In this document: piece by piece, positions 3,698-61,989 of the stretch
Layout: each line of letters opens with the position of its first letter
Numbering within the stretch: position 1 is the stretch's first letter
Source of the DNA: Vicinamibacterales bacterium
GTDB taxonomy: Bacteria > Acidobacteriota > Vicinamibacteria > Vicinamibacterales > UBA8438
Reading direction: 5' to 3'
DNA: 64,000 bases
NCBI GenBank assembly: GCA_965204675.1
Contig: OZ242003.1
Coordinates: 3,392,375 to 3,456,374 of the forward strand
Translations under genes and position numbers: made by a program
Notes under the pieces: model-generated
Seen by the model: only the letters and a program-made list of their open reading frames with translations
Told to the model about the DNA's origin: nothing
The model's database searches: none

Positions 3698-3709
3698 TTG
3701 GTGACCCTC

Positions 3710-4699: not shown

Positions 4700-4726
4700 G
4701 GAAGCAACTTCACGGGAGGAACGACC

Positions 4727-6069: not shown

Positions 6070-6125
6070 CCGGCGGCGCCAGGCGGTGGCGCCAGCCTGA
6101 CGGGGCGGTTCGCTCCCGCCGGCCC

Positions 6126-9700: not shown

Positions 9701-9793
9701 CTCGGCCGGCGCGAGCCCGAGGCAGCCCGCGACGACCTCGGTCACGCGGTCGCGCACCCCTTGGGCCACGGGTGAGGTCGGGTTCAGGGACAT
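6722..9793 (-). CDS. Tri-domain protein: acyl carrier (PP-binding) - thioester reductase (NAD-binding) - APH/choline-kinase-like phosphotransferase
   Basis: - ACP: LYGLDSLRSVEL.
- Reductase: LLTGATGFLGAHLL and YAQSKCVAE.
- Linker: 7x pentapeptide (PAANR).
- Kinase: LIHNDFSPRNA and AYDWELA.
- ATG at 9793. Confidence 0.8.
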   Translation of the reverse strand: MSLNPTSPVAQGVRDRVTEVVAGCLGLAPAEIDPREPLALYGLDSLRSVELGVELEDAFRRPLSDELLTDHPSVDALVRRLESGEQPARRRDDDRAIDLMRNDGVLPPDIRPEAAPAQSRERLPPGPCRSGRRPGAAPAPSRERVLLTGATGFLGAHLLRALLTETGAEVLCLVRTGDADVVRVDDADVASRRVRRSLERYRLWDDAFGRRIRTVTGDLSQPGLGLAGGARAAIASTVDTVYHAAADVNWVSPYGALRAANVVATRELLRLACRGRPKAFHFVSSLSVCHAVGGPRLVAEDDDLFGRLEGLPLGYAQSKCVAEALVRQARARGLRASIHRPALLTGDSASGVSKHDDLVSSLFKGCIRMGTAPDLDWRIDAVPVDQAARAIVHLSATAPQPAHRRLTPPPGAQPTLQESAPFHRADSHGVATFHESARQARRWRECVLWMNLYGYPVRLAPYDHWAEQLARDAARPDHALHRLRGFFLRRRPDGTAVPELYQEARSSAPRSTRTQALLAEAGLDFHRLDAGLLGRYFDEYVAAGFLPPPRRGPRPAANRPAAHRTAANRTATNPLSAKRPAANRPVANRPASSRPSASPPAPPADPDRARFEPMLRRHFGDDSLAVTGATRYAHGAEHSVIAELGGWRGRGRTGLSRYRLDVAGRGSVRPLDVVTKVKPADRELIEVAEAMADTCDAGLGRAVRRFRERIGLRGAHLRELALYAEPDERLRRHTPVCYGTWRDDARREWGLVLERLDGDVLLDATDDPTVWTLDRVGAAVDGLAEIHAVWLGREDNLRNRPWIGHVATSRSMVEMTPLWRALADHAAPRLAEWAGPALVRTHRALVDSLGTWWPRLETAARTLIHNDFSPRNAAIRGAGASARLCAYDWELATVGAPQCDLAHFLCFVLDPGVRRGEAARYVERHRAALAAAGGARLDPCAWRAGFGAALADLLVNRLMFYAMIDRVRPLRFLPRIVRTWRRLHDLFGAWPPVAEDSAAFDPRCAGPGATPGPAADRGEGNGS
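8027..8131 (-). repeat. In-frame 15-nt tandem repeat x7 (PAANR-like pentapeptide linker between reductase and kinase domains)
   Basis: Units of the type GGTTGGCCGCNGGNN on the plus strand; translated as RPAANRPAAHRTAANRTATNPLSAKRPAANRPVANRP. Confidence 0.8.
8513..8596 (-). repeat. ~85-nt hairpin repeat element (family E) inserted in-frame in the reductase domain
   Basis: GGAGTCTGCGCGGTGGAACGGCGCGGACTCC...GGTTGGTTGGGCGCCCGGCGGAG...GACGATGGGCGGGC matches the copies at 50486, 50570, 51205 and 59591. It is translated as AHRRLTPPPGAQPTLQESAPFHRADSHG. Confidence 0.8.
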
Positions 9794-11721: not shown

Positions 11722-11726
11722 GGGCG

Positions 11727-12569
11727 TCACCACCCCCGGGCTCCGTCGCCCACCGGCGCGGCCGCGCCGACGACGGTCGGGCGGGGCGCGGGCCGCTCGG
11801 GCCGCTCGCCGCGCCGCTCGCGGTGCCATTCGATGAACCTCCGGCGGACCGCCCGCGTGTTCGCGGCGAGATCGGCGAGCCGCCAGTCGGCGGTGTCGAT
11901 GGCCGGCATGACGTGGACCCGCACCGTGCCCGGCCGGGCGTCGTAGCCGCGGCCCGGATCGATCTCCGGGGGTATCTCGAGGTAGAGCGGCACGATTGGC
12001 GCCCCGAGGCTGGTGGCGAGGTGGAACGCGCCCTTGTTGAAGCGGCCGATGCCGCCGGACGTGATTCGGGCCCCCTCGGGACTCAGATAGACGGATTCGC
12101 CGGACCGGCGCAGGGCGCGGTCCGCCCGCTGGAAGATCCGGACCCGCTCGGCCGGCCGGGTCTGGGGCACGGTGAAGAAGGTGCCCATCAGTTGCGCGAT
12201 GAAGCCCAGGGGCAACAGCTTCCGGAGCTCCCCCGCCAGGAAGAAGCGGGTGTCGGGGAGGCCCAGCGCCACCAGGACGAACAGGTCGATCGTCGACGAG
12301 TGGTTCGAGACGTACACCGTCTGCGCGGCCGGGAACGGCCGGTCGCGGTGGACCACCACCCGCAGGCCCCACACGCGGAGCACCGCGCGCGCCGCGAGGG
12401 TCGCCGCGCGCGCGTAGAGGCGGCGCGCCCGGAACAGCGTCAGGCAGGCGACGAGCACGAGGGCGAGGGCGACCCCGCTCAGGAGCGCGGCGGTGACCGC
12501 CGCCAACGCCGCGAGACGTACCCGGCGGGGGCGCCTCGCCGGCAGGATGGTCCGCGCGGGATCGTTCAT
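11727..12569 (-). CDS. Lysophospholipid/glycerol-phosphate acyltransferase (PlsC family)
   Basis: N-terminal TM segment, NHSSTID (HX4D) and SPEGAR motifs. Its ATG overlaps the upstream stop (ATGA at 12566-12569). Confidence 0.8.
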   Translation of the reverse strand: MNDPARTILPARRPRRVRLAALAAVTAALLSGVALALVLVACLTLFRARRLYARAATLAARAVLRVWGLRVVVHRDRPFPAAQTVYVSNHSSTIDLFVLVALGLPDTRFFLAGELRKLLPLGFIAQLMGTFFTVPQTRPAERVRIFQRADRALRRSGESVYLSPEGARITSGGIGRFNKGAFHLATSLGAPIVPLYLEIPPEIDPGRGYDARPGTVRVHVMPAIDTADWRLADLAANTRAVRRRFIEWHRERRGERPERPAPRPTVVGAAAPVGDGARGW

Positions 12570-13576
12570 GGCCGCCTCCGGCAGACGACGGTCTGCATCG
12601 CGAGGTTGCATCGCCTGACCAGCGACAGCACCGGCTGCAGCATGAGCTGCCCGGCGAAGTACGGGTAGATGGCGCGGCGCATGTTCAGCCCGCGCCCCTT
12701 CAGCACGCGGAACGCGACGCCGCAGAACAGGTAGAAGTACGGCGGAAACGCGCCGTAGGGCAGGTAGTCGACGACCTCGAGATCGGCCCTCTCGACCATT
12801 CGCAGCAGGGCCGCCCGGTCGTAGAGCGCGGTGTGCTGGGGCGCCTGCAGGCCCGGCCACCGGTCCCCGAACAGGCGGAACGTCAGGCTGTCGAGCCGCG
12901 GCACCTCGATGACCAGCCGCCCCTCGTCCTTGAGGGCGCGGCGCGCGGAGATCAGCGACGGCAGGGGCGCGTAGTCGTGCTCGAGGAAGTGCCACATCGT
13001 GACGAGGTCGAACCGGCCGGCGCCCACGTCCTGCTCGTGGAACGGGCCGCAGTGGAACTCGACCCCGCGCAGCGCGGGGCGGTCGGCGAGGTCGACGAAG
13101 TCGACGCCGACCCCGGCCGCGCCGTGCCGGGCCCGGAGGCCGGCGAGGAACGTGCCGGCGCCGCAGCCCACGTCGAGCACCGTGCTCGACGCGTCGAGGG
13201 CCAGGTACCGGCGGCAGATCCGCAGCTTCTCGCGGTCGACGGCCCCCATCGCCCACCGGAACAGGGGAGCCATCCAGCCCCAGTCGGAGCCCGGCCGGTG
13301 GGCCAGGTAGTCCTCGTCGTAGTAGTCCTTGACGCGCTCGATGGTCAGCCGGGGCGTCTGGTACACGAGGCCGCAGGCCCGGCAGCACCGGAACGTGAAG
13401 CGGCCGGGGCGCCCCGTCAGGTCGTCCTCGGCGGTGATGAAGGGGTCCGACGCGGCGTGGCCGCAGCCGCAGCAGGCCACGGCCTCGAAGTCCCGACCGT
13501 CCCCGGGATCGTTGCCGACGCGCGGCCGGGGCCGCGCATCGACGGCGGAATCGATCGCGATCGTCGTGGAGTTCAT
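12566..13576 (-). CDS. Class I SAM-dependent methyltransferase with N-terminal Cys4 zinc-ribbon
   Basis: CCGCG...CCRACG followed by VLDVGCGAGTF (motif I) and LVIEVP. ATG at 13576 is preceded by GGAGAGCGGAG. Confidence 0.75.
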   Translation of the reverse strand: MNSTTIAIDSAVDARPRPRVGNDPGDGRDFEAVACCGCGHAASDPFITAEDDLTGRPGRFTFRCCRACGLVYQTPRLTIERVKDYYDEDYLAHRPGSDWGWMAPLFRWAMGAVDREKLRICRRYLALDASSTVLDVGCGAGTFLAGLRARHGAAGVGVDFVDLADRPALRGVEFHCGPFHEQDVGAGRFDLVTMWHFLEHDYAPLPSLISARRALKDEGRLVIEVPRLDSLTFRLFGDRWPGLQAPQHTALYDRAALLRMVERADLEVVDYLPYGAFPPYFYLFCGVAFRVLKGRGLNMRRAIYPYFAGQLMLQPVLSLVRRCNLAMQTVVCRRRP

Positions 13577-13740
13577 GGCAGTGCTCCGCTCTCCGTGCGG
13601 CGCCCATCGCCGGACGGGCGCGTTGGCTTCGTCGTGGAGTTCATGGCAGTGCTCCGCTCTCCGTGCGGCGTCCATCGGCGGACGGCGTGGGTTGGCGGCT
13701 CCGAGGTGTCGTTCGTGGCGGTGCTCCGCTCTCCGCAGGC
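13561..13740 (-). repeat. Tandem duplication (68 nt, 72 nt, ~2.5 copies) of the RBS + ATGA stop/start junction upstream of the methyltransferase
   Basis: ttcatggcagtgctccgctctccgtgcggcg occurs at 13572 and 13640, with a degenerate third copy at 13712. Confidence 0.85.
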
Positions 13741-14282
13741 CGGTTGTGATGCACCTCGTACCCGATCGCCGCCGCGTACATCACCGCCATCGCGAGGGCC
13801 AGCGGAGGCGTCCGCGGCGCACCGGCGGCCGCCGCGACGAGGGCGACGAAGACGGGATACTTGGCCAGCAGCACGCCGAAGCGCCAGAGGCGGTCGGACA
13901 CGCGGGCGCGCAGCCGGTAGGCCGCGAGGAAGGCCACGTCCAGAACGGCGAGTCCGGCCGCGGCGACCGCGGACCGCGCCGCCAGGACGACGAGGTTACC
14001 GACCCCGATGGCGACGAGCGCGCGCCGGAACGGCGCGGGCGGCACGACGACCAGAATCCGTTCGGGATGGGTCGCCCGGTCCCGGTCGCGATCTTCGAGG
14101 TCGTCCCAGAGCCGGAACTGCAGCAGGAGGAGGGCGGCGAGGCCGGCCGCCGCCGCGAGCCGTGCCGGCGTCGGCTCCGCGCCGGCCGCCCACAGCGCCA
14201 GCCCCACGTGCAGCGCAGTGGCGGGGGCGAACACGGCGGGGCGGAACCGCTGGGCGAGGTACGCGGCGAACCGGCCGGTCAT
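13641..14282 (-). CDS. Short polytopic membrane protein with UbiA-superfamily first Asp-rich motif
   Basis: About 6 predicted TM helices. DLEDRDRDRATHPER matches DxxDRxxDxxxxPxR. Its ATG overlaps the upstream stop (ATGA 14279-14282). The last ~30 codons are repeat-derived, so the true C-terminus is uncertain. Confidence 0.6.
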   Translation of the reverse strand: MTGRFAAYLAQRFRPAVFAPATALHVGLALWAAGAEPTPARLAAAAGLAALLLLQFRLWDDLEDRDRDRATHPERILVVVPPAPFRRALVAIGVGNLVVLAARSAVAAAGLAVLDVAFLAAYRLRARVSDRLWRFGVLLAKYPVFVALVAAAAGAPRTPPLALAMAVMYAAAIGYEVHHNRPAESGAPPRTTPRSRQPTPSADGRRTESGALP

Positions 14283-44810: not shown

Positions 44811-44957
44811 TGGTAGCGGCAACATGAAAAGGGACCCCATGGCCACTTGAAAAGGGACCCCCTGAGCACTCGGAAACAGCGGCCCCTGGCGATGATCGAC
44901 GGGGCGAGACACGGTCGTCTCGTCGACCGAGCCAGGAGGGACGCGGAGGTGATCAGG

Positions 44958-46430
44958 ATGACCCAGTGGGCCGAGGTCCGCCACCTGCATCTGGTGGAGG
45001 GTGTGCCGAAGAAGGAGATCGCCCGGCGATTGAAGCTCGACGTCAAGACGGTGCGGCGGGCCATCGGCCGGTCGACGCCACCGGTGCGGGTGTCGCCGCC
45101 GCGGCCCAGCATCCTGGATCCGTGGCGGGAGCGGATCAGGCAGTGGCTGGGCGAGGAGCCGCGGTTGACGGCGAAGCGGATTCGCCGGCTGCTGTTGCCG
45201 TTGGCCGGACCCGTCCCGGCGCGCACGGTGCGCCGCTACGTCGCGGTGCTGCGGGCAGCCACCACGAGGCAGGAGGCCTTCGTGCACCGTAGCGTGCGCC
45301 CCGGGACCACCCTGGAGGTCGACTTCGGCGAGTCGTGGGTCGACATCGCGGGCGTGCCGTGCAAGGTGAAGTACCTGGTGGCGACGCTGCCGTTCTCCAA
45401 CGCGTACTTCGCCAAGGCGTACCCGGTCGAGCGGCTCGAGTCGCTGCTCGACGGCATCGAGTCGGCGTTCCGCTACTACGGGGGCGTGGTGGAGCGCGTC
45501 ATCCTCGATAACACCTCGCTGGCGGTCAAGGACGTGTTGACCGGTCGGGACCGGGTGCAGACCGAGGCGTTCGAGGCGTTCCGGGGCGGATATCCGTTCC
45601 GGGCCGAGTTCTGCGCGCCGGCCAAAGGCTGGGAGAAGGGTTCCGTCGAGTGCGGTGTGAAATACGTCCGGAACCTGGTGTTCCGGCCGCGGCTCGCGGT
45701 CGAGAGCTGGGCGGCCCTCAACGCGGCGATCATCACCGAGCTGGAGGCCGACCTGCCGACGCGCCAGCTCGAGGATGGGCGCCCGGTCGAGGAAGCGTTG
45801 GCGGAGGAGCGCCGGCGCCTGCGGGCGATGCCCGCCCACCTGCCCACCACCTGCCGCGTCGTCGCGCGGGTGGCCGACAAGTTCGGGCACGTCCGCGTGG
45901 ACCGGGTGACGTACTCGGTGCCGATCCGCCATGCCTACCGGCCGGTGTGGGCGAAGCTGTATCACGACCGGGTAGCGATCGCGGTCGGCGCCGAGGTGGT
46001 CGCCGAGCATCGCCGGGCGTTCGTCCGGGGCGCGAAGGTCCTCGATGCGCTTCACGTGCTGCCGTTGCTCGAGCGCAAGCACCGGGCCGTGGCCGAGGCG
46101 ACGGCTCTCCTCGACTGGCGGCTGGCGCCGGTGTGGCAGCAGGCGCGGGCGGAGCTGGCGAAGCACACCCGCAAGCCCGATCAGGAGTGGGTCCGGATGC
46201 TGCGGTTGATGGAGTCGCACCCGGCCACGGCCGTCGAGCGCGCAGTGAGGACCGCGATCGAGCGCCATTCCCCGCGTCTGGAGACGGTGCGGCTCATCCT
46301 CCGACAGCAGGAGGCCGGCCCGCCGCCGGTGTGCCCGCCGGTCTCGGGCGTGCGTCCGGAGCTGGCGCGGATCGCGGTGCCCGCGCCGAGGCTGTCGGCG
46401 TATGACGCGCTGGTGGAGGGCTCCCGCTGA
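44958..46430 (+). CDS. istA: IS21 transposase IstA
   Basis: HTH segment MTQWAEVRHLHLVEGVPKKEIARRLKLDVKTVRRA, a DDE core (LEVDFGE...ILDNTS...KGWEKGSVE) and a GGAGG RBS. Confidence 0.85.
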   Translation: MTQWAEVRHLHLVEGVPKKEIARRLKLDVKTVRRAIGRSTPPVRVSPPRPSILDPWRERIRQWLGEEPRLTAKRIRRLLLPLAGPVPARTVRRYVAVLRAATTRQEAFVHRSVRPGTTLEVDFGESWVDIAGVPCKVKYLVATLPFSNAYFAKAYPVERLESLLDGIESAFRYYGGVVERVILDNTSLAVKDVLTGRDRVQTEAFEAFRGGYPFRAEFCAPAKGWEKGSVECGVKYVRNLVFRPRLAVESWAALNAAIITELEADLPTRQLEDGRPVEEALAEERRRLRAMPAHLPTTCRVVARVADKFGHVRVDRVTYSVPIRHAYRPVWAKLYHDRVAIAVGAEVVAEHRRAFVRGAKVLDALHVLPLLERKHRAVAEATALLDWRLAPVWQQARAELAKHTRKPDQEWVRMLRLMESHPATAVERAVRTAIERHSPRLETVRLILRQQEAGPPPVCPPVSGVRPELARIAVPAPRLSAYDALVEGSR

Positions 46431-47215
46431 TGGCTGCCACGATCACCGAGCCCCCGCATCTGGCCGCGGACCTGAAGGCGCTGTACCTGTCGACGGTCGC
46501 GTCTCAGTGGCGGCCCCTGGCCGAGCAGGCCGTCCGCCAGCGTCAGGCGCCGGCCGACTACTTGGCGCAGTTGGTGCACTTGGAGGTGACCGCACGGCGG
46601 GAGCGCCGCATCCAACGCCGCATCCAGGACGCCCGCTTCCCGACACTGAAGACGCTGGACGCCTTCTCGTTCGAGGCGCAGCCGGACCTCGACCGCGACG
46701 CGGTCCTGCAGGTTTTCGACTGCCGCTTCGTCGCCGAGGCCGCCAACGTCGTGTTCGTCGGCGGGGTCGGCACGGGGAAGACGCATCTGTCCATCGCCTT
46801 GGGGATGGCCTGCTGTCAGCACGACTACCGGGTGCGGTTCGTGACCGCGGCCGAGCTGGTCACCATGCTCGTCGAGGCGCAGCAGCAGGGCCGGCTGGCC
46901 CGCAAGCTCGCCCAGCTTGCCCGCTACGACGCGGTCCACGTCGACGAGCTGGGGTACGTCCCGCTCGACAAGACCGGCGCCGACCTGCTGTTCGGGTTCA
47001 TCAGCGAGCGGTACGAGCGCCGGAGCCTGGTGGTGACGACGAATCTGCCGTTCGCGCGCTGGTCCGAGGTCTTCCTCGACCCGACGGCGGCCGCCGCGGT
47101 CATCGACCGGGTCGTGCACCACGCGACGGTACTGCAGACCACGGGCGGCAGCTTCAGGCTTCAGGCCGCCAAGCGGAACCGGTCGCCGGGCGCCGGCCGG
47201 CGGGGGGGCCGTTGA
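46430..47215 (+). CDS. istB: IS21 helper ATPase IstB
   Basis: Walker A VFVGGVGTGKTHL, Walker B VHVDELGY, and VVTTNLPFARW. The TGATG overlaps istA. Confidence 0.9.
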   Translation: MAATITEPPHLAADLKALYLSTVASQWRPLAEQAVRQRQAPADYLAQLVHLEVTARRERRIQRRIQDARFPTLKTLDAFSFEAQPDLDRDAVLQVFDCRFVAEAANVVFVGGVGTGKTHLSIALGMACCQHDYRVRFVTAAELVTMLVEAQQQGRLARKLAQLARYDAVHVDELGYVPLDKTGADLLFGFISERYERRSLVVTTNLPFARWSEVFLDPTAAAAVIDRVVHHATVLQTTGGSFRLQAAKRNRSPGAGRRGGR

Positions 47216-48238: not shown

Positions 48239-48363
48239 CGCTACAGTCTAGACGAATGGATGCCTGATGTCATCGCTCAATGGCCGCGCCGCAATCGGTC
48301 ACACGGGGCGCCCATTCCCGGCGGGGTCCCGCTGGAGGGGAGAACCGCGAGGGGTTGATCGTC

Positions 48364-48381
48364 GTGATACAAATGTATTAC
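48364..48381 (+). promoter_or_regulatory. Candidate LexA operator (imperfect palindrome GTGATAC-N4-GTATTAC)
   Basis: This is the only AT-rich palindrome in the 150 nt upstream of lexA. It ends 11 nt before the ATG, and the arms match 6 of 7. Confidence 0.4.
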
Positions 48382-48392
48382 ATTCTCCAGCC

Positions 48393-49001
48393 ATGAGCCA
48401 GACACGGGCGGGGCGGACCCGCGACCGGGTGTTCCGGTTCGTTCGCGACCGGCTGCTCGCCGGCGACCCGCCGACGGTGCGCGAGGTGCAGCAGGTGTTC
48501 GGCTTTCGCACGCCGCACACGGCGCGGTACCACCTGGAGAAGCTCGTGGCCGAGCGGAAGCTGTCGGCGGCCCGCGGCAAGGCCCGGGGCTATCGCCTGC
48601 CGATGGGCGGCGAGCCGGCGGCGCCGGTGGGCTGGGTGCCGCTGCTGGGGCGGGTCGAGGCGGGGCGTCCGGCCGAGGCGGTCGAGGACGTCGAAGGCTA
48701 CGTGCCGGTGCCGGCCGACCGGGCGGGGGCGGGGCTGTTCGCGCTGCGGGTGCAGGGGCGCAGCATGGTGGGGGCGGGCATCCTGCCCGGCGACCTCGTG
48801 ATCGTGCGGCGCCAGCCGACCGCCGACCCGGGGGCGCTGGTGGTGGCCCTGGTCGACGGCGAGGCGACGGTCAAGCGGCTGCGCCGGCGGGACGGCCGGG
48901 TGGAGTTGCACCCGGAGAACCCCGAGTTCGCGCCCATCCGGTCCGACCGGGAGATCACCCTGCTCGGCAAGGTCGTCGAGGTGCGCCGCACCGTAGGTTG
49001 A
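48393..49001 (+). CDS. lexA: LexA repressor
   Basis: N-terminal wHTH (PTVREVQQVFGFRTPHTARYHLEKL). Cleavage and catalytic segments VEAGRP, VQGRSMV, GDLVIV and DGEATVKRL. Confidence 0.9.
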   Translation: MSQTRAGRTRDRVFRFVRDRLLAGDPPTVREVQQVFGFRTPHTARYHLEKLVAERKLSAARGKARGYRLPMGGEPAAPVGWVPLLGRVEAGRPAEAVEDVEGYVPVPADRAGAGLFALRVQGRSMVGAGILPGDLVIVRRQPTADPGALVVALVDGEATVKRLRRRDGRVELHPENPEFAPIRSDREITLLGKVVEVRRTVG

Positions 49002-49013
49002 TGGGAATGCGCG

Positions 49014-49712
49014 ATGGCCCGCGCCGCGCTGAAGCTTCCCCCGCGATTGACGGGGCGCCTGGACGCGACCCTGCGACGGGGTGCGCCTGCCTCTCCGGGG
49101 CCCACCGGCGGGCCGCTCCGGTCGTGGCGTCTGGCCGCCCTCGCCGGGCGCCTCGCCGAGCTGTCGAGCCGGGAGGGCGCGGCGGGGCTGACCCTGGCGT
49201 TCTCGCTGGTGCTCGACGCTCAGCGGGCCGGCGAGCCGGTGGGCTGGCTGACGGCTGACGCGAGCGCCTTCTTTCCCCCCGACGTGGCGCGCGGCGGCGT
49301 CGACCTCGACGCCCTGGTCGTCGTCCGGCTGCCGGCGGTCGGGCAGCTTCCGCGCGCGGCCGAGCACCTGGCGCGCTCGGGCGCCTTCGGCCTCCTCGTG
49401 CTCGACCTCGGCGAGGCCGCCCGGGTGCCGGTCCCGATGCAGATGCGCCTGCTCGGCCTGGCCAGAGAGCACGAGTCGGCGGTGCTGTTCCTGACCCGGA
49501 AGGGGGGCGGTGACGTGTCGCTCGGCTCCCTCGTGTCGCTCAGGGCCGAGGCGCGGCAGGAGCCGGCCGTGCGCCAGGAGGTGGTGGGGGTGGGCGCCCG
49601 CCGCGCCGGGGTCACCGACTTCACGTGCACTGCTCAAGTGCTCAAGGACAAGCGGGGCGGACCCGGGTGGAGTCACGTCGAAGTGTGTCGTGGACCGGAT
49701 GGGCTGTGTTGA
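49014..49712 (+). CDS. imuA: ImuA (RecA/SulA-like SOS mutagenesis protein)
   Basis: Sits between lexA and imuB. LAELS...GLTLAFSLVLDAQRAGEPVGWL...FGLLVLDLGE, with the C-terminus KDKRGGPGW...GPDGL. Confidence 0.75.
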   Translation: MARAALKLPPRLTGRLDATLRRGAPASPGPTGGPLRSWRLAALAGRLAELSSREGAAGLTLAFSLVLDAQRAGEPVGWLTADASAFFPPDVARGGVDLDALVVVRLPAVGQLPRAAEHLARSGAFGLLVLDLGEAARVPVPMQMRLLGLAREHESAVLFLTRKGGGDVSLGSLVSLRAEARQEPAVRQEVVGVGARRAGVTDFTCTAQVLKDKRGGPGWSHVEVCRGPDGLC

Positions 49713-49925
49713 CGGGCCGGCGCTGCCGCGCCCGGGTGTTCAAGACGAGCAGGGCGGACCGGGTGGAGTCACGTCGAGGTGTGTCGTGGACCGGATGGAC
49801 GTGTTGACGTGCCGGCGCTGCCGTGCCCGGGTGCTCGAGGACAAGCGGGGCGGGCCCGGGTGGAGTCACGTCGAGGTGTGTCGTGGACCGGATGGCCTGT
49901 GTTGACGTGCCGGCGCTGCCGCTCC
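49638..49925 (+). repeat. Tandem triplication (~96-97 nt units) of the imuA-stop / imuB-start junction
   Basis: Units begin near 49638, 49736 and 49831. Each contains GGACCGGATGG.CTGTGTTGACG.GCCGGCGCTGCCG, with ATGs at 49699, 49795 and 49892. Confidence 0.9.
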
Positions 49926-51871
49926 AGTTGCTGATGCGCCGGCAGCCCGGGTGGGCGGCGCAGCCGGCGGCGGTGGTCGACCGCGATCGGCCGCAGGGGG
50001 TCGTCGAGTGGGTGAACGAGCCGGCCCGCCGGGCCGGGGTGCTGCCCGGCATGTCGTACGCGGCGGGGCTGTCGCTGGCCGATGGGCTGCGCGCGGCCGA
50101 GGTGTCTCCCGGCGACGTCGAGGCCGGCGTCGCCGCGATCGCCGGCCTGCTGCGGCGGTTCACGCCCGGCGTCGAGCCGTCGCGCGCCCGTTCCGGGGTG
50201 TTCTGGCTCGACGCCTCGGGGCTGCAGCCGCTGTTCGCCTCCCTCGTGGACTGGGCGCGCGGGGTGCGGGTTCAGCTTCGGGCGGTGGGGTTCCGGGCAT
50301 GGGTGGTGGTGGGGTTCACCCGGTTCGGCACCTATGCGCTGGCGCGGGCCGGGGGGGAAGCCGCCCGCCGAAGGCCGGATTCCCGCGTCACGGTGCTCGA
50401 CGACGCCGAGCATGCGCGGGCGCGGGCCGGAGGGGAGGCGGCCCGCCGGGGACCGGACGGTTGCGTGGTTGGCGCGACTCGGGGGCCTGGCCCGCCCATC
50501 GTCGCCTTCGGCTCCGCCGGGCGCCCAACCAACCCTGCCAGGAGTCTGCACCGTTCTACGGCGCAGACTCCTGGCCCGCCCATCGTCGCCTTCGGCTCCG
50601 CTGGGCGCCCAACCAACCCTGCCAGGAGTCTGCACCGTTCTACGGCGCAGACTCCTGGCGCAGGCGAAGCGGTGGAAGCGGATCGTCGGCGGGCGGACGG
50701 CGGGGTAACGGTGCTCGAGGACGCCGCGGCCGAGCGGCGGGCGGCCCGCCGCGTCCCGCTGCGCCGGCTCGACGTCGACCCCGCGCTGCGCGACGCCCTC
50801 GACAAGCTCGGGGTCCGCACCGTGGGGGCGTTCCTGCGGCTGCCGGCCGCCGGCGTCCGGCGGCGTTTCGGCCGCGAGGCGCATCGGCTGCACCGCGAGG
50901 CGGCGGGGGACCTGGTGGTCCCTTTCCAGCCCGCGCCGGCGGTCGAGCCGCTCGCGCGCCGCCTCGATCTCGATGAGCCGGAGACCGGGGTCGAGGGCCT
51001 GCTGTTCCTGGTCAAGCAGGCCCTCGACCCGCTGCTCGGGGTGATGGCGTCGCGGCAGGAGGCGTTGGCCGGCCTCGAGCTCCGCCTGCGGCTGGACGCG
51101 CCGGCCGCGGCGCCGCGGGTCGAGCGGGTCGAGAGCATTCGCCCCGCCGCCCCGACCCTCGACATCCGGCAGGTCCTGAACCTCGTGCGTCTGCGCGTCG
51201 AGGGCCTGGCCCGCCAATCGTCGCCTGACGGCTCCGCTGGGCGCCCGACCGACCCGCCGGGAGCCCGCGCCGTTCCACGGCGCAGACTCCCGACCCTGTC
51301 CGCCGGGGTGATCGAGATCGCCCTGGCGGTGACGCCGGCGCGGGCGACCCGCGAGCAGTTGCGGCTCTTTCAGGAGGGGGGGCGGCGTGACCTCCGGGCC
51401 GCGGACCGCGCGGTGGCCCGCATCAGGGCCGAGTTCGGGGACGGTGCGGTGGTGCGGGCGGCGCTCGCCGACGGGCATCTGCCCGAGGCGGCCTTCGCCT
51501 GGCTGCCGCTGGATCACGTCGTGCGCCCGGTCCCCGCCCCGACCGGCGCCCTCTCGCTGGTGCGGCGTCTCTTCGTCGCGCCGCGCCGGGTGCCGTCCCG
51601 GCGGCGGCGCGAGCTGGACGGCCGGGTGTCGGGCGGCGCCGGCCACGATTCCGCGCCGGCCGCGGCGGACCGGGACGCCCATGGTCCGCCGGCAACGGCT
51701 GCAACCGGCCGGGCCGCCGGAATGCGCGGGCCCTACGTGGTGTCGGGCGGCTGGTGGAGAACTCCGGTCCACCGGGAGTACTACTTCGCCAGCGCCGGCG
51801 GGCGCACTTGGCGGTGGATCTACTACGACCGCCGCCGCCGGGCCTGGTTCGAGCAGGGCGCGGTGGAATGA
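49892..51871 (+). CDS. imuB: ImuB (Y-family polymerase-like SOS mutagenesis protein)
   Basis: MACVDVPALPLQLL..., VVEWVNEPARRAGVLPGM, position in the cassette, and the third-copy ATG. It contains three in-frame repeat-element insertions. Confidence 0.85.
   Translation: MACVDVPALPLQLLMRRQPGWAAQPAAVVDRDRPQGVVEWVNEPARRAGVLPGMSYAAGLSLADGLRAAEVSPGDVEAGVAAIAGLLRRFTPGVEPSRARSGVFWLDASGLQPLFASLVDWARGVRVQLRAVGFRAWVVVGFTRFGTYALARAGGEAARRRPDSRVTVLDDAEHARARAGGEAARRGPDGCVVGATRGPGPPIVAFGSAGRPTNPARSLHRSTAQTPGPPIVAFGSAGRPTNPARSLHRSTAQTPGAGEAVEADRRRADGGVTVLEDAAAERRAARRVPLRRLDVDPALRDALDKLGVRTVGAFLRLPAAGVRRRFGREAHRLHREAAGDLVVPFQPAPAVEPLARRLDLDEPETGVEGLLFLVKQALDPLLGVMASRQEALAGLELRLRLDAPAAAPRVERVESIRPAAPTLDIRQVLNLVRLRVEGLARQSSPDGSAGRPTDPPGARAVPRRRLPTLSAGVIEIALAVTPARATREQLRLFQEGGRRDLRAADRAVARIRAEFGDGAVVRAALADGHLPEAAFAWLPLDHVVRPVPAPTGALSLVRRLFVAPRRVPSRRRRELDGRVSGGAGHDSAPAAADRDAHGPPATAATGRAAGMRGPYVVSGGWWRTPVHREYYFASAGGRTWRWIYYDRRRRAWFEQGAVE
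50486..50653 (+). repeat. Two tandem 84-nt copies of element E, in frame within imuB
   Basis: CCTGGCCCGCCCATCGTCGCCTTCGGCTCCGC.GGGCGCCCAACCAACCCTGCCAGGAGTCTGCACCGTTCTACGGCGCAGACT occurs twice. It encodes PGPPIVAFGSAGRPTNPARSLHRSTAQT twice. The hairpin is GGAGTCTGC-N13-GCAGACTCC. Confidence 0.9.
51205..51290 (+). repeat. Third, diverged copy of element E in imuB
   Basis: CCTGGCCCGCCAATCGTCGCCTGACGGCTCCGCTGGGCGCCCGACCGACCCGCCGGGAGCCCGCGCCGTTCCACGGCGCAGACTCC, translated as LARQSSPDGSAGRPTDPPGARAVPRRRLP. Confidence 0.8.
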
Positions 51872-52045
51872 AACCGCGGCGGAACGAGCCGATCAGGATC
51901 TGCCATGGCCGCGCTGCCGGGGCTGGTCGAGCAGGGCGCGGTGGAATGAAACCGCGGTGGAACGAGCCGCGGTGATGCCGAGCCGCGGTGGTGGAACGAG
52001 CTGCGGCGGAACCGCGGTGGAAAACGAGCCGGGTGGAAGCGGGCC
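51844..52045 (+). repeat. 78-nt tandem duplication of the imuB stop junction plus ~5 copies of a CCGCGGTGGAACGAGC motif upstream of dnaE2
   Basis: GAGCAGGGCGCGGTGGAATGAAACCGCGG.GGAACGAGCC occurs at 51851 and 51929. Motif copies lie near 51873, 51952, 51983 and 52012. Confidence 0.85.
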
Positions 52046-52048
52046 GAG

Positions 52049-55000
52049 GTGGAGACGTACGCGCCGCTCTGGTGCAAGAGCAACTACTCGTTTCTGGAAG
52101 GCGCCTCCCATCCCGAGGAGCTGGTCGAGCAGGCCCACGCCCTGGGCCTGCCCGGCCTCGCGCTGACCGACCGGGACGGCGTGTACGGCATCGTGCGCGC
52201 CCACGTGCGGGCCCGCGAGCTCGGCGTGCACCTGATGTGCGGGGCCGAGCTGTCGCTGGACGGCGGGGCGAAGCTGGTGCTGCTGGCCACCGATCGCGCC
52301 GGCTACGCCAACCTCTGCCGGCTCGTCACCCGCGGCCGACGCCGGCACGCCAAGGGCGAGTGCAGCGTCACCGTGGACGAGGTCTGCGGGCACGCCGCCG
52401 GGCTGCTGGCCCTCTGGCCCGGCGCCCACTGGGCGGCCGAGGCCGACGCCGCCCGCGACCGCCCGGCTCTGGCCGCGCTCCGCGACGCCTTCGGCGACCG
52501 GGCTTGCGGGCTGCTGGCGCGCCACCGCCTCGCCGCCGAGGCCCCGCGGGAAGGGTGGCTGCGGGCGCAGGCCCAAGAGATAGGTCTGCCCCTGGCGGCG
52601 GCGACGGAGGTGCTCTACCACGACCCGGCCCGCCGTGACCTCCAGGACGTGCTGACCTGCATCCGGCACGGCGTCAGCCTCGCCCGGGCGGGGCGCCGCA
52701 TCCGCGCCAACGCCGAGCATGGCCTGAAGGCGCCGGCCGCCTTCGCCGAGCTGTTCCGCGACGACCCCGGCGCGGTGGCGCGCACGGTCGAGATCGCGGC
52801 CCGGTGCCGCTTCTCGCTCGCCGAGATCCGCTACCGCTATCCGTCCGAGCGCCTGCCCGACGGCGACACCTCGTCGAGCTGGCTCCGCCGGCTCGCCGAG
52901 GAGGGGGCGCGGCGGCGCTTCGGGGGCCGCGTCCCCGCCGCGGTGCGGACGCAGATTGCGAAGGAGCTGGCCCTCATCGACGAGCTCGACTACTGCGGCT
53001 ACTTCCTCACCATGTGGGAGATCGTCGAGTTCTGCCGCCGCCACGGCATCCTCTGCCAGGGGCGGGGGTCGGCCGCCAACTCGGCCGTCTGCTACTGCCT
53101 CGGCATCACCGCCGTCGACCCCACGCGGGTCGATCTGCTGTTCGAGCGCTTCCTGTCGCGCGAGCGGGCCGAGCCGCCCGACATCGACCTCGACATCATG
53201 CACGAGCGGCGGGAAGAGGTGATTCAGTTCGTCTACGAGAAGTACGGGCGCGACCGGGCGGCGATGGTCGCCAACGTCGTCCGCTACCGCGCCCGCTCGG
53301 CCGTGCGCGAGGTGGGGAAGGCGCTGGGGCTGCCCGAGACCGCGGTCGACCGGCTCGCCAGGCGGCTGTCCCACCACGATGCCGTCGACGGGGACACGGT
53401 GCGGCAGGTGCTCGACGGCGAAGGACCGGCGGCGGCGCACCTCGTGCGACTCGCCGGCGAGATCCGGGACTTTCCCCGCCACCTGTCCATCCACCCCGGC
53501 GGCTTCCTGCTGGGCCACGAGCCGGTGCACGACCTGGTGCCGATCGAGAACGCGGCGATGCCCGGACGCACCGTCATTCAATGGGACAAGGACGACCTGG
53601 AGGACCTCGGGCTGTTCAAGGTCGACCTGCTGGGGCTGGGGGCGCTGACCCAGCTCGACCTGTCGTTCGGGCTGCTGGCGCGGCACTACGGCCGCACCCT
53701 GTCGATGGCCGCGATTCCGGAGGGGGACGAGGCCACCTACGACATGATCTGCCGCGGCGACACCGTCGGCGTCTTCCAGATCGAGAGCCGGGCGCAGATG
53801 GCGATGCTGCCGCGGCTCAGGCCGCGCAGCTACTACGACCTCGTCATCGAGGTGTCCATCGTCCGGCCGGGGCCCATCACCGGCGGGATGGTGCACCCGT
53901 ACCTGCGGCGGCGCAACGGGGAGGAGGCGGTGGCCTACCCCCACCCGTGCCTCGAGCCGGTGCTCGCGAAGACGCTGGGGGTGCCGCTGTTCCAGGAGCA
54001 GGTGATGCAGCTCGCGATGGTCGCGGCCGACTACACCCCCGGCGAGGCCGACCAGTTGCGGCGCGACATGGCGGCGTGGCGGCGCAGCGGGCGCATCGAG
54101 CGCCACCACGACCGGCTCGTCGGCCGGATGACGGCCAAGGGCATCGCCCCCGAGTTCGCCGAGCGGGTGTTCGGCCAGATTCGCGGCTTCGGGGAGTACG
54201 GGTTCCCCGAGAGCCACGCGGCCAGCTTCGCCCTCATCGCCTACGCCACGTCCTGGCTGCGGTGCCACTATCCCGACGTCTTCACCTGTGCGCTGCTCAA
54301 CGCGCAGCCGATGGGGTTCTACGCGCCGGCCACCATCGTCGACGACGCCCGGCGGCACGGCGTCGACGTGCGCCCGGTCGACGTCACCTGCAGCGGCTGG
54401 GACTGCACCCTGGAGCCGGCCGGGACGCCGTCTTCTCCGGCCCCGGGGGCGGGCGGGTCGGCGGGGCCGGTGAGGCCGGGGCGGACCAGCGCCGCCTCAC
54501 CACCGCGACGCTCGTCACCCGACGCGCGTCATTCCGACCGCCGGCAGCGCGTTGACGCTAGCGCCGCCTCACCACCGCGACGCTCGTCACCCGACCGACC
54601 CGCCGGAAGCCCGCGCCATCTCCGGGGACGGCGCGGTTCCGAGGAGCGGAAGCCCGGGTTCGCGGTGCGGATGGGCCTGCGGTACGTCAAGGGGCTGTCC
54701 GAATCGCGCGACTGGGCCCGCATCGAGGCCGCCCGCGGGCGAGCGCCGTTCGGCTCGGTCGCCGACTTCGTGGCCCGGACCGGCCTCGACGAGAAGATGG
54801 CGGGCCGGCTCGCCGAGGCGGGGGCGCTGGCCGGTCTCGAGCGGCGGCGCCGCGACGCGCTCTGGCAGGTCCGCGGCCTCGTCCGTGCGCTCGCGCCGGT
54901 CCTGCCGCCCGGGGCCGCGCGGGACGAGACCCCGGGGTTCGACGACCTCGATCCGGGCGAGACCATCGCGTGGGACTACCGCACCAGCGCGCACAGCCCG

Positions 55001-55369
55001 CGCGGCCATCCCCTCGCCGCCCTGCGGGCGCAGCTCGGGGCCCGGGGCCTCCCCGACGCCCGCACCGTCTCGGCGATGCGCGACGGGCGGAAGACGCGCT
55101 ACGCCGGGCTCGTCATCTGCCGCCAGCGTCCCGGCACCGCGGGCGGGGTCGTGTTCATGACCCTCGAGGACGAGACCGGGTTCGTGAACCTGGTGGTCTG
55201 GAGCCGGGTGTTCGACGAGCATGCCCTGGTCGCCCGGACCGCGTCGTTCCTCGGCGTGACCGGCAGGATCCAGCGGGCGGGCGGCGTCGTCCACCTCGTC
55301 GCCGACACGCTGTGGCGCCCCGAGCTCGACACGGGGCCGAACGCGGTCGGCAGCCGGGACTTCCACTAG
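52049..55369 (+). CDS. dnaE2: Error-prone DNA polymerase DnaE2 (ImuC)
   Basis: PHP domain ([17 protein letters not shown]; [11 protein letters not shown]), the pol III alpha core ([19 protein letters not shown]) and an OB fold at the C-terminus. GTG is the first canonical in-frame start after the stop at 51947. Confidence 0.9.
54488..54640 (+). repeat. Direct repeat (2 x 36 nt, 72-nt offset) plus right half of element E, in frame in dnaE2
   Basis: AGCGCCGCCTCACCACCGCGACGCTCGTCACCCGAC occurs at 54488 and 54560. It is followed by CGACCGACCCGCCGGAAGCCCGCGCC, as in the 51205 copy. It encodes [11 protein letters not shown] twice. Confidence 0.75.
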
Positions 55370-59590: not shown

Positions 59591-59679
59591 CCTGGCCCGC
59601 CAATCGTCACCTTCGGCTCGGCTGGCGCCCAACCAACCCTCCACGAGTCCACGCCGTTCTACCGCGCAGACTCCTGGCC
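59591..59679 (+). repeat. Copy of element E overlapping the 3' end of the symporter gene
   Basis: CCTGGCCCGCCAATCGTCACCTTCGGCTCGGCTGGCGCCCAACCAACCCTCCACGAGTCCACGCCGTTCTACCGCGCAGACTCCTGGCC. The reverse strand supplies codons G-Q-E-S-A-R and the stop. Confidence 0.85.
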
Positions 59680-61236
59680 ACGGTCCGACTCGACGGCGAC
59701 CGCCTTGCGTCCCGACACCACGTCGTAGAAGTCTCCGCCGGCCTCGTCGTCGGCGGTCACCAGCGACACGATGGGGACGACCGCGAGGGGCACGAAGAAG
59801 GTGAAGTACGACGGGTCGACGCCCTCGCCGCCAACCGTGAGCGCCTCGACGAGGAGGCGCAGGACGGGTCCCGCCGACTCGGGGGCGGTGAGCCCGGCCG
59901 CCAGCGCGATCTTGATCGCCGCGAACCAGGCGAGCCCGGCCCCGTAGCCGACCGCCATCCCCCACCAGGCGCCCTGCTCGGTGGTGCGCCGCCAGTAGAT
60001 GAGATAGCCGAGGGCCACCGCCGGCGGCACCACCATGGCGAAGCCGAACAGCAGCAGGTCGAGGATGGAGATCGAGGTGCGGGTGGCGACGTACCAGGCC
60101 GCGACCGCCGCCAGGAAGGCGTAGACGGTGGTGGTGACGCGGTACGCCTTGAGCCGTTGCTCTGACGTCCGGCGGCGGGCCGCGGGCAGCCAGTCGTCGA
60201 CCACCATGGTGGCGCTCGAGAGCAGGATCGGGCCGCCGGAGGAGATGACCGCGGCGAGCACCGCGGCGAGGGCGACCCCGCCGACCACGGGGTCGATCTC
60301 CGAGGCCAGGGTCGTGAGGTTGCGGTAGCCGCCGAGCCCGGCGTCGAAGCCGTAGCGGGCGGTGGTGAGGATGCCGATCAGCCCGGCCAGCACCGACATC
60401 GCGGCCGCTATCAGGCCCCCGAGCAGGAACGCCGGCGCGATCTGCCGCTCGGTCCGGGCCGCCGTCGAGTAGTTCGTGTACACCGAGGCGGCCGGCGTGT
60501 GCACCGACGCCGCGAAGAACATCCCGATGACGGGGAGCCACCCCGCCCCCGCGAAACCCCACCAGGCCGTCTCGCTCCGGGAGGCCGCATCGAGCTGGCC
60601 GCCGACGGCCGCGGTGACCTCGGCCCAGCCGCCGAGCTGCTCGATGCCGGCCAGGCCCACCCACAGGAGGCCGACGAGCACCACCGAGCAGTGGATGAGG
60701 TTGGTGACGGCGGTGCCCCACAGCCCGCCGAGGGAGACGTAGGTGGAGAAGATGACGGCGGCCACCATCACCCCGCCGAACATCGACAGGGGCGTGAGGG
60801 TGCTCAGGATGACCCCGATGACGTAGGCCTCGATGAGGTTGACGACGACGTACTCGGTCTGCACGCACAGGCTCGTGAGCCACTGGCAGCGCCGGGTGCC
60901 GAAACGGATGGTGAACAGCTCGCCGACCGTGTGGAGCCGGAACCGCCGGTAGTAGACGCCGAAGAAGATGCCGACGATGGCGAGGGCGAGGAACGTGTTG
61001 ATGCCGTACCACCACAGGTTCCAGACGCCGCCGGTGATGACGTCGCCGGCCACCCCGTAGGTGCCGGCGCCCCCGATGCGGGTGCCGGCGACCCCGAACG
61101 CCACCATCGCGGTCGACATGCCGCCGCCGGCCACCGCCCAGCCCGCCGAGCTGCCGGCGCGCCGGGCCATGAGGCTGCCGACGGCGGTGGCCGCCACCAG
61201 GTAGACGACGATGGTCGCGGGCGCGATGGCGTCCAT
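59659..61236 (-). CDS. Sodium:solute symporter family (SSF) transporter
   Basis: About 13 TM segments; N-terminus MDAIAPATIVVYLVAATAVG...; GGLWGTAVTNLIH. Confidence 0.8.
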   Translation of the reverse strand: MDAIAPATIVVYLVAATAVGSLMARRAGSSAGWAVAGGGMSTAMVAFGVAGTRIGGAGTYGVAGDVITGGVWNLWWYGINTFLALAIVGIFFGVYYRRFRLHTVGELFTIRFGTRRCQWLTSLCVQTEYVVVNLIEAYVIGVILSTLTPLSMFGGVMVAAVIFSTYVSLGGLWGTAVTNLIHCSVVLVGLLWVGLAGIEQLGGWAEVTAAVGGQLDAASRSETAWWGFAGAGWLPVIGMFFAASVHTPAASVYTNYSTAARTERQIAPAFLLGGLIAAAMSVLAGLIGILTTARYGFDAGLGGYRNLTTLASEIDPVVGGVALAAVLAAVISSGGPILLSSATMVVDDWLPAARRRTSEQRLKAYRVTTTVYAFLAAVAAWYVATRTSISILDLLLFGFAMVVPPAVALGYLIYWRRTTEQGAWWGMAVGYGAGLAWFAAIKIALAAGLTAPESAGPVLRLLVEALTVGGEGVDPSYFTFFVPLAVVPIVSLVTADDEAGGDFYDVVSGRKAVAVESDRGQESAR

Positions 61237-61282: not shown

Positions 61283-61834
61283 TCACGCCGGGGCGGTCAG
61301 CGCCGCGAGGATGTCGTCGATCGCGTCGCGCGCCTTCGCCCGCATCTCGTCGTCGGTGGCGTCCTGTATCGGATGCGGCACGAACACCGAGCCGCTCGCG
61401 ATCGCGGGCATGCCCAGGGCCTCCGCCTGCATCCGGGCGGGGCGGACGAACTCGCTCGACGCCACCATGACGGCGGGGATGCCGCGGGCCTCGTAGTCGA
61501 CCAGGTCGTGCACACTGCACGACGTGCAGGACCCTCAATCGGCGAGGGCCTGGATGACGGCCCGGCACCGCGCCCCCACCTCCTCCCGGAGGTCGTCCGG
61601 GGCGGGCTTGGTGTAGGTCGGCTTGCGGAGGCGGATGACGTCCAGCGAGGGGAAGCGCTCGCGGACGAGCCGCTCGACCTCGTCGCAGAAGACGTCGCCC
61701 CGCGCCTTCGCGATGTCGATGATGCCCAGCGCGCCCTCGAGGCGGGCGGAACGGGCCGCGGGCTGCCGCCCCATGGGGGCGCGTTCGTCGGTGGGGTCGA
61801 GAATGACGGGGGATTCGTTGTCCATGGCGTTCAC
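61283..61834 (-). CDS. UGSC-motif (seleno)protein candidate; in-frame TGA (61537-61535) read as Sec
   Basis: ORFs 61535..61834 and 61283..61513 are in the same frame, separated only by a TGA. The join reads AVIQALAD-U-GSCTSCSVHDLVDYE, with a SECIS-like hairpin 11 nt downstream. Confidence 0.65.
61505..61523 (-). promoter_or_regulatory. SECIS-like stem-loop
   Basis: RNA GUCGUGCA-GUG-UGCACGAC: a perfect 8-bp stem. Loop G and U fall at positions 23 and 24 counted from the U of UGA. Confidence 0.55.
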
Positions 61835-61989
61835 CCTCAGGCCGGTGATGCTACGGATCGACCGGCTTCAATGCAGCAAGGCCGGGGGTTACTTCACGAG
61901 AAGGCGGCAGGGCGTGACTCGCGTCGCCATTCTCGCCCTGCTACCTGGTCCGATTCCGCGAATGCCCCGTCTACCGGTGGGCTCCATCA

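Follow-up and report, generated by a model that had tools for sequence, protein, structure and literature searches.

In a 64,000-nucleotide (nt) stretch of the Vicinamibacterales contig OZ242003.1 (assembly GCA_965204675.1, forward-strand positions 3,392,375 to 3,456,374), hereafter the window, two neighbouring minus-strand open reading frames (ORFs) very probably constitute a single gene of the UGSC family of selenoproteins. With high confidence we read 61825..61283 (-) as one UGSC gene, in which the UGA at 61537-61535 encodes selenocysteine (Sec), the hairpin that follows acts as the selenocysteine insertion sequence (SECIS), and the product would be a redox protein, with the protein encoded immediately upstream as its likely partner. 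The source of the window is a marine, host-associated member of the Vicinamibacterales (Acidobacteriota); the sequencing runs that hold its 31-mers are sponge, coral and marine metagenomes, together with host-labelled runs.

The ORF list of the minus strand gives one ORF of 99 amino acids (aa) at 61834..61535 and another of 76 aa at 61513..61283, both with a GTG start. When 61834..61283 (-) was translated throughout, 184 codons were obtained with one stop inside (...RCRAVIQALAD*GSCTSCSVHDLVDYEARG...), which bears out what a model had proposed in an initial sequence-only reading, namely that the two ORFs share a frame and are separated by one TGA. Both halves have a coding-type composition, with a G+C content at third codon positions (GC3) of 0.94 and 0.95 and at second positions (GC2) of about 0.5, in a window of 72% G+C, and the TGA region was assembled with zero differences from an independent public run (X1). 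The likely start codon, judged from its context, is ATG 61825 and not GTG 61834, because a GAGG lies 9 nt upstream of the ATG and homologues start equivalently, at M(D/N/S)ES..ILDPT; GTG 61834 overlaps this Shine-Dalgarno site.

When U is replaced by C, the read-through product reaches 147.5 bits with the profile NF041046 of NCBIfam, 'UGSC family (seleno)protein' (profile positions 5-147 of 147), and 148.1 bits with Pfam PF24696, 'UGSC' (2-171 of 172). The curated cut-offs are 125 and 25 bits, respectively, so that both hidden Markov models (HMMs) uphold the family assignment first made from the letters of the DNA. A first homologue search returned mostly proteins of 99-129 aa ending exactly in ...VIQALAD, together with a few full-length ones carrying ...ALADCGSCTSCS..., and gene calls on public contigs likewise split homologues into 99 aa and 76 aa; fragments of this kind had been foreseen for standard gene callers. 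A profile search yielded 587 UGSC relatives. The alignment with Cys-containing homologues, which had been proposed together with the initial reading, places an invariant Cys in the TGA column of all 120 aligned full-length proteins, within an invariant D-C-G-S-C-T-S-C-S-x-H-D (D96-C97-G98-S99-C100 in the numbering of the homologue alignment, n=120). In an exhaustive profile search of 1.8 billion cluster representatives, 1647 clusters were found; among the best 150 (representatives of 50%-identity clusters), 48 are N-terminal fragments that end in ...L[A/S/G]D, cut at the equivalent TGA. The most distant full-length members retain only D-[U/C]-G-S-C of the motif.

A scan of one genome per species detected more than 581 loci, and the comparison was made on the best 80. 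The closest loci are on chromosomes of metagenome-assembled genomes (MAGs) of Vicinamibacterales (Acidobacteriota), with an amino-acid identity of 96-97% (e.g. OZ242323.1 and OZ253457.1). This places the window in that order and, whatever its G+C content might suggest, outside the actinobacteria. The TGA occupies the site in 89 of 89 UGSC genes from 83 related loci, representing about 80 species, and its carriers belong to the Acidobacteriota, Myxococcota, Acidimicrobiia and other Actinomycetota, Alphaproteobacteria, Dehalococcoidia (Chloroflexota), Binatota and others, with two isolates among them, Hyphomonas sp. CY54-11-8 (L069) and Pseudonocardia bannensis DSM 45300 (L081). Codons +1 to +3 after the TGA (Gly, Ser, Cys) vary synonymously among TGA forms. 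The Ser at +2 switches between TCN and AGY across species, which only selection at the protein level explains, and the stretch after the TGA is therefore translated. In each of the 28 species compared, the frame 3' of the TGA continues without a stop for 79-101 codons, and synonymous differences in this 3' half are about as frequent as non-synonymous ones.

These comparisons bear on two other explanations. The first is that the locus holds two separate small genes, an ORF of 96/99 aa that ends at the TGA and one of 76 aa that starts at GTG 61515-61513. Public callers annotate homologues in this way, and a GTG is indeed present seven codons past the TGA; however, this GTG is the Val codon of the hairpin loop and is TTG, CTG or ATG (Leu/Met) in other species, and the seven codons between the TGA and the GTG (G-S-C-T-S-C-S) are conserved in amino acid despite synonymous changes, the TCN/AGY exchange of Ser included. 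Two genes would also split the redox motif from its domain, whereas the Cys forms are single proteins of 170-185 aa and the structural model described below is one compact domain over both halves. The second explanation is a pseudogene or an assembly error, with a nonsense change (TGC/TGT to TGA) in a former Cys codon. TGT and TGC are one mutation away from TGA and the family does have Cys forms, but the same TGA recurs in every one of the 89 genes, both halves are under purifying selection, the independent run gave the identical sequence, and a hairpin conserved in TGA forms only would be senseless in a dead gene. The open and conserved 3' frame, with the varying GTG of the loop, therefore excludes in our judgement both a pseudogene and a separate GTG-started gene; we regard two genes as highly improbable and give the pseudogene practically no weight.

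Counting on the sequence confirmed the perfect hairpin of 8 base pairs (bp) that had been described past the UGA, with a UGA-to-stem distance of 11 nt and the G and U of the loop at positions 23 and 24 (Table 1). A perfect hairpin that has 8 bp or more and the geometry of a bacterial SECIS comes after 11 of the 1046 TGA trinucleotides (1.05%) of the window. In 88 distinct TGA forms, codons +4 to +10 (ACG UCG UGC AGU GUG CAC GAC) show a synonymous entropy of 0.30, 0.10, 0, 0, 0, 0.31 and 0 bits, while the flanking conserved residues reach 0.5-2.3 bits; the codons of low entropy coincide exactly with the hairpin, and at +6, +7, +8 and +10 a single codon is used throughout. As a control we used a metagenome scan with the Cys clade, which provided 57 distinct TGC/TGT forms with a matching peptide plus 5 TGA forms. 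For the same codons the Cys forms give 1.51, 1.66, 0.67, 2.23, 1.54, 0.82 and 0.95 bits. The six upper pairs of the stem (6-bp core) are kept in one of the 57 Cys forms as against all five TGA forms of that set, and each of the 73 distinct TGA-form sequences aligned forms them. The codon AGU, which is rare at 95% GC3, occurs in all 93 distinct TGA forms (88 + 5) and in three of the 57 Cys forms. The sole pair with synonymous sites on both sides shows two double changes from G-C to A-U, in addition to three G-U. At +8, TGA forms have Val, Leu or Met (NUG) and Cys forms mostly Thr (ACN), so that the U closing the stem constrains the protein and not the reverse. These results show, on comparative grounds, that the hairpin is under selection at the nucleotide level and in TGA forms only, and that the locus is one gene with its TGA at a Cys-equivalent, catalytic position and a SECIS maintained by selection.

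Two individual Cys loci were seen to differ in this region. The one Cys form with the full hairpin, P0001 (L084:1228-1275), has TGT at the site and also retains the AGT codon; it has the appearance of a gene changed from Sec to Cys not long ago, its SECIS being left as a fossil. In a more distant Cys form, L085, the hairpin is lost.

Several observations weigh against our reading. The folding energy of the region is ordinary for its composition: the 48 nt have a minimum free energy (MFE) of -18.1 kcal/mol, with a z-score of -0.87, and an equally good fold was reached by 34 of 200 shuffled sequences. Because the energy of a single sequence is unremarkable at 72% G+C, the support for the hairpin is comparative. 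The covariation concerns one variable pair only, with its two double changes, and is thin but consistent; the peptide motif forces a partial self-complementarity, and the Cys forms still form 4-7 of the 8 pairs; and the element has no bulged U17, which the SelB of E. coli contacts and needs. In the 64-kb window no tRNA was found, nor any sel gene among the approximately 35 ORFs scanned, and the flanks of 26 acidobacterial relatives (±10 kb) contained no selA, selB, selD or tRNA-Sec. The redox function and the partnership are argued from motif, predicted fold and gene order.

Some of these points would suit a hairpin without any RNA role, which arises merely because the conserved peptide C-T-S-C-S-V-H-D has to be encoded, the motif being partly self-complementary whatever codons are used and the single-sequence z-score being as unremarkable as stated. 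Against this, the Cys forms vary their codons freely in the same place and rarely keep the core, the TGA forms are fixed to one codon at four positions with the rare AGU among them, compensatory changes from G-C to A-U occur, and +8 is NUG in TGA forms but mostly ACN in Cys forms. We consider an accidental hairpin extremely improbable.

That Sec machinery was not seen in the window would in turn suit a readthrough of UGA that inserts no Sec, either through reassignment of the codon (to Trp or Gly) or through suppression by near-cognate tRNA(Trp) or tRNA(Cys) stimulated by the hairpin, and one homologue entry (P0009) has a W at the TGA-equivalent site. However, the UGSC gene itself and its neighbours terminate with TGA, and TGA is therefore not reassigned genome-wide; Cys, which has sulfur in place of the selenium of Sec, is the only residue aligned with the site; the hairpin fits the rules of SelB-type SECIS elements; and the W of P0009 is most simply due to a gene caller that used a code with TGA as Trp. 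Other carriers, moreover, have tRNA-Sec and selDAB adjoining UGSC. In four alphaproteobacterial MAG loci (L032, L035, L047 and L060) a tRNA-Sec lies 2-4 kb from UGSC; the neighbours in L032 score above their cut-offs as selB (299.8 bits), selA (580.9 bits), selD (341.3 bits) and an AhpD-related (seleno)protein (266 bits), and homologues of these four neighbours are present in the other three loci. Since tRNA-Sec and selDAB adjoin UGSC in these carriers, the family is tied to the Sec system, and readthrough of another kind has only a very slim chance of being correct. From the comparison of these genes we infer Sec at the site and, with it, a Sec-competent genome for the window.

The arrangement in these alphaproteobacteria, where selB, selA, selD, tRNA-Sec, the AhpD-related (seleno)protein, the partner and UGSC are all contained within about 10 kb (L032:1360-10504; also L035, L047 and L060), looks like a compact 'selenium island'.

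Taking the Sec-encoding gene as the preferred interpretation, the following course of events can be proposed. The UGA at 61537-61535 would be decoded as Sec, as the comparative evidence suggests, and the hairpin at 61523-61505 would serve as a bacterial SECIS that presents G23 and U24 of its apical loop to the SelB-GTP-Sec-tRNA(Sec) complex. By analogy with established bacterial Sec insertion, this complex would deliver Sec-tRNA(Sec) when the ribosomal A site holds the UGA. The UxxC pair of the finished protein would most likely alternate between a selenol/thiol and a selenenylsulfide form and exchange electrons with the CxxC domain of the upstream protein, its probable redox partner; motif, model and gene order all point this way. 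The C-terminal domain of the partner probably holds a catalytic or substrate-binding function, and a symporter gene in the same orientation hints at an imported small molecule in the Vicinamibacterales lineage.

Table 1. Features of the UGSC locus in the window; positions count from the first letter of the window.
Feature	Position	Strand	Remarks
UGSC-family selenoprotein gene (predicted), complete	61283..61825	-	96 codons + Sec-TGA + 83 codons + stop TGA; 180 aa including Sec
Shine-Dalgarno-like GAGG	61835..61838	-	9 nt 5' of ATG 61825; read from the sequence
Putative Sec codon TGA, in frame	61535..61537	-	U97 of the 180-aa product
Codons of the U-G-S-C redox motif (TGA GGG TCC TGC)	61526..61537	-	Read from the translation
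C-terminal part, 83 codons + stop (TGA 61285-61283)	61283..61534	-	Needs the upstream TGA to be recoded
Predicted junction-spanning peptide	U97 region	-	AVIQALAD-U-GSCTSCSVHDLVDYEAR
Putative SECIS hairpin, 19 nt	61505..61523	-	nt 15-33 from the U of UGA; perfect 8-bp stem
Hairpin 5' arm GUCGUGCA	61523-61516	-	nt 15-22
Hairpin loop GUG	61515-61513	-	G23, U24, G25
Hairpin 3' arm UGCACGAC	61512-61505	-	nt 26-33
Partner gene, 547 aa	61990..63633	-	TlpA/ResA-like N-domain with C-A-T-C, RPGCGSK motif, C-domain of about 350 aa
Sodium:solute symporter gene (SSS family)	59659..61236	-	46 nt downstream of UGSC; third gene of the putative operon

The structure of the protein was predicted with AlphaFold2 for the Cys homologue P0001, which is 56% identical to the window protein, from 120 aligned sequences. 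The model has a mean predicted local distance difference test (pLDDT) of 90.2 and a predicted template-modelling (TM) score (pTM) of 0.85, and consists of five beta-alpha units in one compact domain across both halves, with the Cys/Sec placed where strand 3 ends, directly ahead of helix 3. Foldseek searches of the Protein Data Bank (PDB) gave flavodoxin-like proteins as best matches (dipicolinate synthase B and flavodoxins, TM about 0.5); thioredoxin is absent among the top fold matches, and no solved structure matches UGSC by sequence. The model thus predicts a five-stranded, flavodoxin-like alpha/beta domain. The thioredoxin-like fold suggested in 2008 does not agree with the five parallel beta-alpha units of this model or with the lack of a thioredoxin match. 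The product is probably cytoplasmic. A four-ligand metal site (U, C, C, H) was also considered and set aside, as the third Cys and the His are lost in distant members; because these two residues are not kept, a UxxC redox pair is the better general reading. Two relatives, P0348 and P0398, carry a NifU-like domain (Pfam PF01106) C-terminal to that of UGSC, a fusion that hints at a link with Fe-S cluster or thiol chemistry.

A homologue of the partner gene is found directly upstream of UGSC in 82 of 85 loci, including Cys forms and a second UGSC paralogue of the Vicinamibacterales. Its N-terminal domain scores 45.5 bits against Pfam AhpC-TSA and 37.6 bits against Redoxin, matches ResA in Foldseek (E 2e-10, TM 0.83-0.89 on the target), and keeps its C-[A/P]-T-C motif across phyla; databases name the protein 'TlpA disulfide reductase family protein' or 'peroxiredoxin'. 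The C-terminal domain is rich in Cys and His and contains many invariant residues, such as C263, H286, C361 and H439; these approximately 350 aa gave no sequence match in Pfam, NCBIfam or the PDB, and a fold search with the whole partner model returned matches to the thioredoxin domain only. The partner shares the thioredoxin-fold CxxC domain with the classical periplasmic TlpA/ResA proteins; unlike these, no signal peptide or membrane anchor is visible by eye. A 651-aa protein (P0271) was examined as a possible fusion of partner and UGSC and rejected, since it matches the partner only in patches between Arg-rich stretches that look out of frame; its most likely origin is a frameshift in a gene called from a long-read contig.

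The symporter scores 83.4 bits against Pfam SSF, above the cut-off of 22.8, and 109.7 bits against TIGR00813, below the curated cut-off of 184. It is present downstream of UGSC in 16 loci, all of Vicinamibacterales/Acidobacteria type and not elsewhere, and beyond this symporter of the acidobacterial clade no downstream gene is conserved among the loci compared. No promoter or terminator signals were found between the partner, UGSC and symporter genes. Look-ups of the partner and symporter proteins of the window by exact sequence gave no match. Metatranscriptome contigs from sponge, coral and marine samples cover the UGSC gene of close relatives, and one of them, a 640-nt contig from a sponge, spans the 3' end of the partner and the 5' part of UGSC in a close relative. 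The gene order suggests that UGSC and its upstream partner are a conserved functional unit. A bolder proposal, possible but in our view rather doubtful, is that the two proteins are the obligate components of a previously undescribed type of selenoenzyme, acting in Vicinamibacterales together with an imported solute. If it were true, a flavodoxin-like selenol/thiol carrier would pass electrons to or from a new catalytic domain, that is, the C-terminal domain of the partner, and in Vicinamibacterales the solute acted on would enter through the adjacent sodium symporter.

The second UGSC paralogue occurs in several Vicinamibacterales, 2-7 kb downstream of the first, with the sequence …VITAIGD-U-GSCTSCSLHD… (L013:15950, L014:17262, L016:16083, L017:16042, L018:14231, L019:12049 and L021:3292). 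It has a TGA and a hairpin of its own and, in L016, L018 and L021, a shorter partner-like gene directly upstream; it is not present in the 64-kb window.

At window positions 61484-61571 the depth of matching contigs rises 10- to 100-fold around the TGA and hairpin (X1 and X23-X25; sponge, coral and marine DNA and RNA), and every run contains 12-19 contigs whose match is confined to about 61505-61543 and which diverge beyond it. Many different UGSC genes of these communities have these approximately 39 nt nearly letter for letter in common, and the assemblies break at the TGA/hairpin.

Only two TGA codons of the window are flanked, on either side and in frame, by sequence that looks strongly coding. 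The one other than that of UGSC, at 4697-4699 (+), was considered as a recoding site and rejected as an ordinary stop without a SECIS-like hairpin. It separates two coding-like ORFs of the same frame, a cytochrome c protein at 3698-4699 and an unknown ORF at 4700-5389, and 27 nt past it a GGAGG Shine-Dalgarno sequence is followed by an ATG that opens a signal peptide. Elsewhere in the window we observed an IS21-like insertion sequence at 44817-47215, in which an istA-type transposase, with the C-terminal domain of a Mu transposase, precedes istB (PF01695, 243 bits), and a LexA-regulated mutagenesis cassette at 48252-55369, with lexA (S24 peptidase), a RecA-like ImuA, a Y-family polymerase-like ImuB and DnaE2. 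The large ORFs at 6100-13800 (-) have an atypical G+C distribution over codon positions; motifs of a fatty-acyl-AMP ligase, a carrier protein, a thioester reductase, a kinase-like protein, an acyltransferase and a methyltransferase were recognized there by eye, and the region is probably a lipid biosynthesis cluster. Genes for outer-membrane efflux, MacB, cytochrome c and a pyrroloquinoline quinone (PQQ) dehydrogenase fit a Gram-negative organism.

As to what these results mean, public protein collections store this gene and many of its relatives as two fragments (99-129 aa and 76 aa), where a single selenoprotein of 180 aa, its TGA annotated as a translation exception, would be the correct record. 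The nearly universal upstream partner, the flavodoxin-like predicted fold and the contrast between Sec and Cys forms may help to assign a function; in that contrast the SECIS holds seven codons fixed and even dictates one residue. The picture of the Sec insertion mechanism is unchanged.

When compared with known SECIS elements, the UGSC hairpin agrees with the bacterial consensus. The bSECISearch model describes a loop of 3-9 nt, a stem of 4-16 bp, a UGA-to-loop distance of 16-37 nt, a G in the first two loop positions followed by U, and an MFE of -7.5 kcal/mol or lower (PMC13188914). The UGSC hairpin has a loop of 3 nt (GUG), a stem of 8 bp, a UGA-to-loop distance of 19 nt and -10.9 kcal/mol, and so agrees with the published model on all four counts, as the SECIS check suggested with the sequence-only reading was meant to establish; no Rfam family matches it. 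Bacterial SECIS elements usually differ greatly among genes and species, whereas the UGSC element, owing to its overlap with a peptide motif that does not vary, has almost the same letters in different phyla. In E. coli fdhF, the 17-nt upper stem-loop comprises nt 15-31, begins 11 nt after the UGA, and has a bulged U17 and G23 and U24 in the loop (PMC8659212); the fdhF sequence that we used was checked against 5419 E. coli genomes. The two hairpins share their location inside the coding sequence, the 11-nt spacing, G15, G23, U24 and U26-G27-C28-A29-C30 in register, and their top four base pairs are UGCA/UGCA. They differ in that nt 17 of the UGSC element is a paired C within eight uninterrupted Watson-Crick pairs, and in that its loop has 3 nt and that of fdhF 4 nt; the cognate SelB also belongs to another phylum than that of E. 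coli. The 'fdhF-like geometry' originally claimed thus holds for the spacing, for G23/U24 and for the top of the stem, and fails for the bulge and the loop size.

At the protein level, UGSC resembles the UxxC/CxxU selenoproteins of thioredoxin fold (thioredoxin-, peroxiredoxin- and SelW-like) in having its redox pair at the start of a helix after a beta-strand, although the predicted fold is flavodoxin-like instead. It is also reminiscent of GrdB, GrdF and PrdB, subunits of glycine, sarcosine and proline reductases, which likewise have a UxxC motif and, as is predicted for UGSC, work with a second, larger protein. In NCBIfam, residues 81-173 of the window protein give weak matches to the C-terminal region, which contains the Sec, of GrdB (E 0.0037) and GrdF (E 0.0047); the scores are 16.2 and 15.6 bits, where 602 and 800 would be required (TIGR01917 and NF040794). 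Membership in the GrdB/PrdB family was rejected, given HMM scores far below cut-off and 0 of 120 UGSC family members matching Pfam GRDB at E <0.1; the search of cluster representatives, of which the best 150 hits are listed, does not extend to relatives so distant. No GrdA-, GrdE- or PrdA-like gene lies near UGSC, and the likeness is a lead and not a sign of membership, as far as the sequences tell.

The closest known system is the UGSC family itself. The 'UGSC-containing protein' was described by Zhang and Gladyshev in 2008 from the Global Ocean Sampling data, with 255 Sec and 21 Cys forms and a UxxC motif; it was among the most abundant selenoprotein families in those data and in aquatic metagenomes, its function was unknown, and a 'likely Trx-like fold' was suggested, Trx being thioredoxin (PMC2398784). 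The family also appears in later surveys and reviews. A flavodoxin-like fold and an upstream TlpA-like partner are details that we did not find in the published UGSC papers examined. The window protein matches the family of 2008 in size (about 180 aa), in the motif column, in the mixture of Sec and Cys forms and in the aquatic/marine bias, and its gene is an ordinary member of a family known since then (PMC2398784), for which curated NCBIfam and Pfam models exist.

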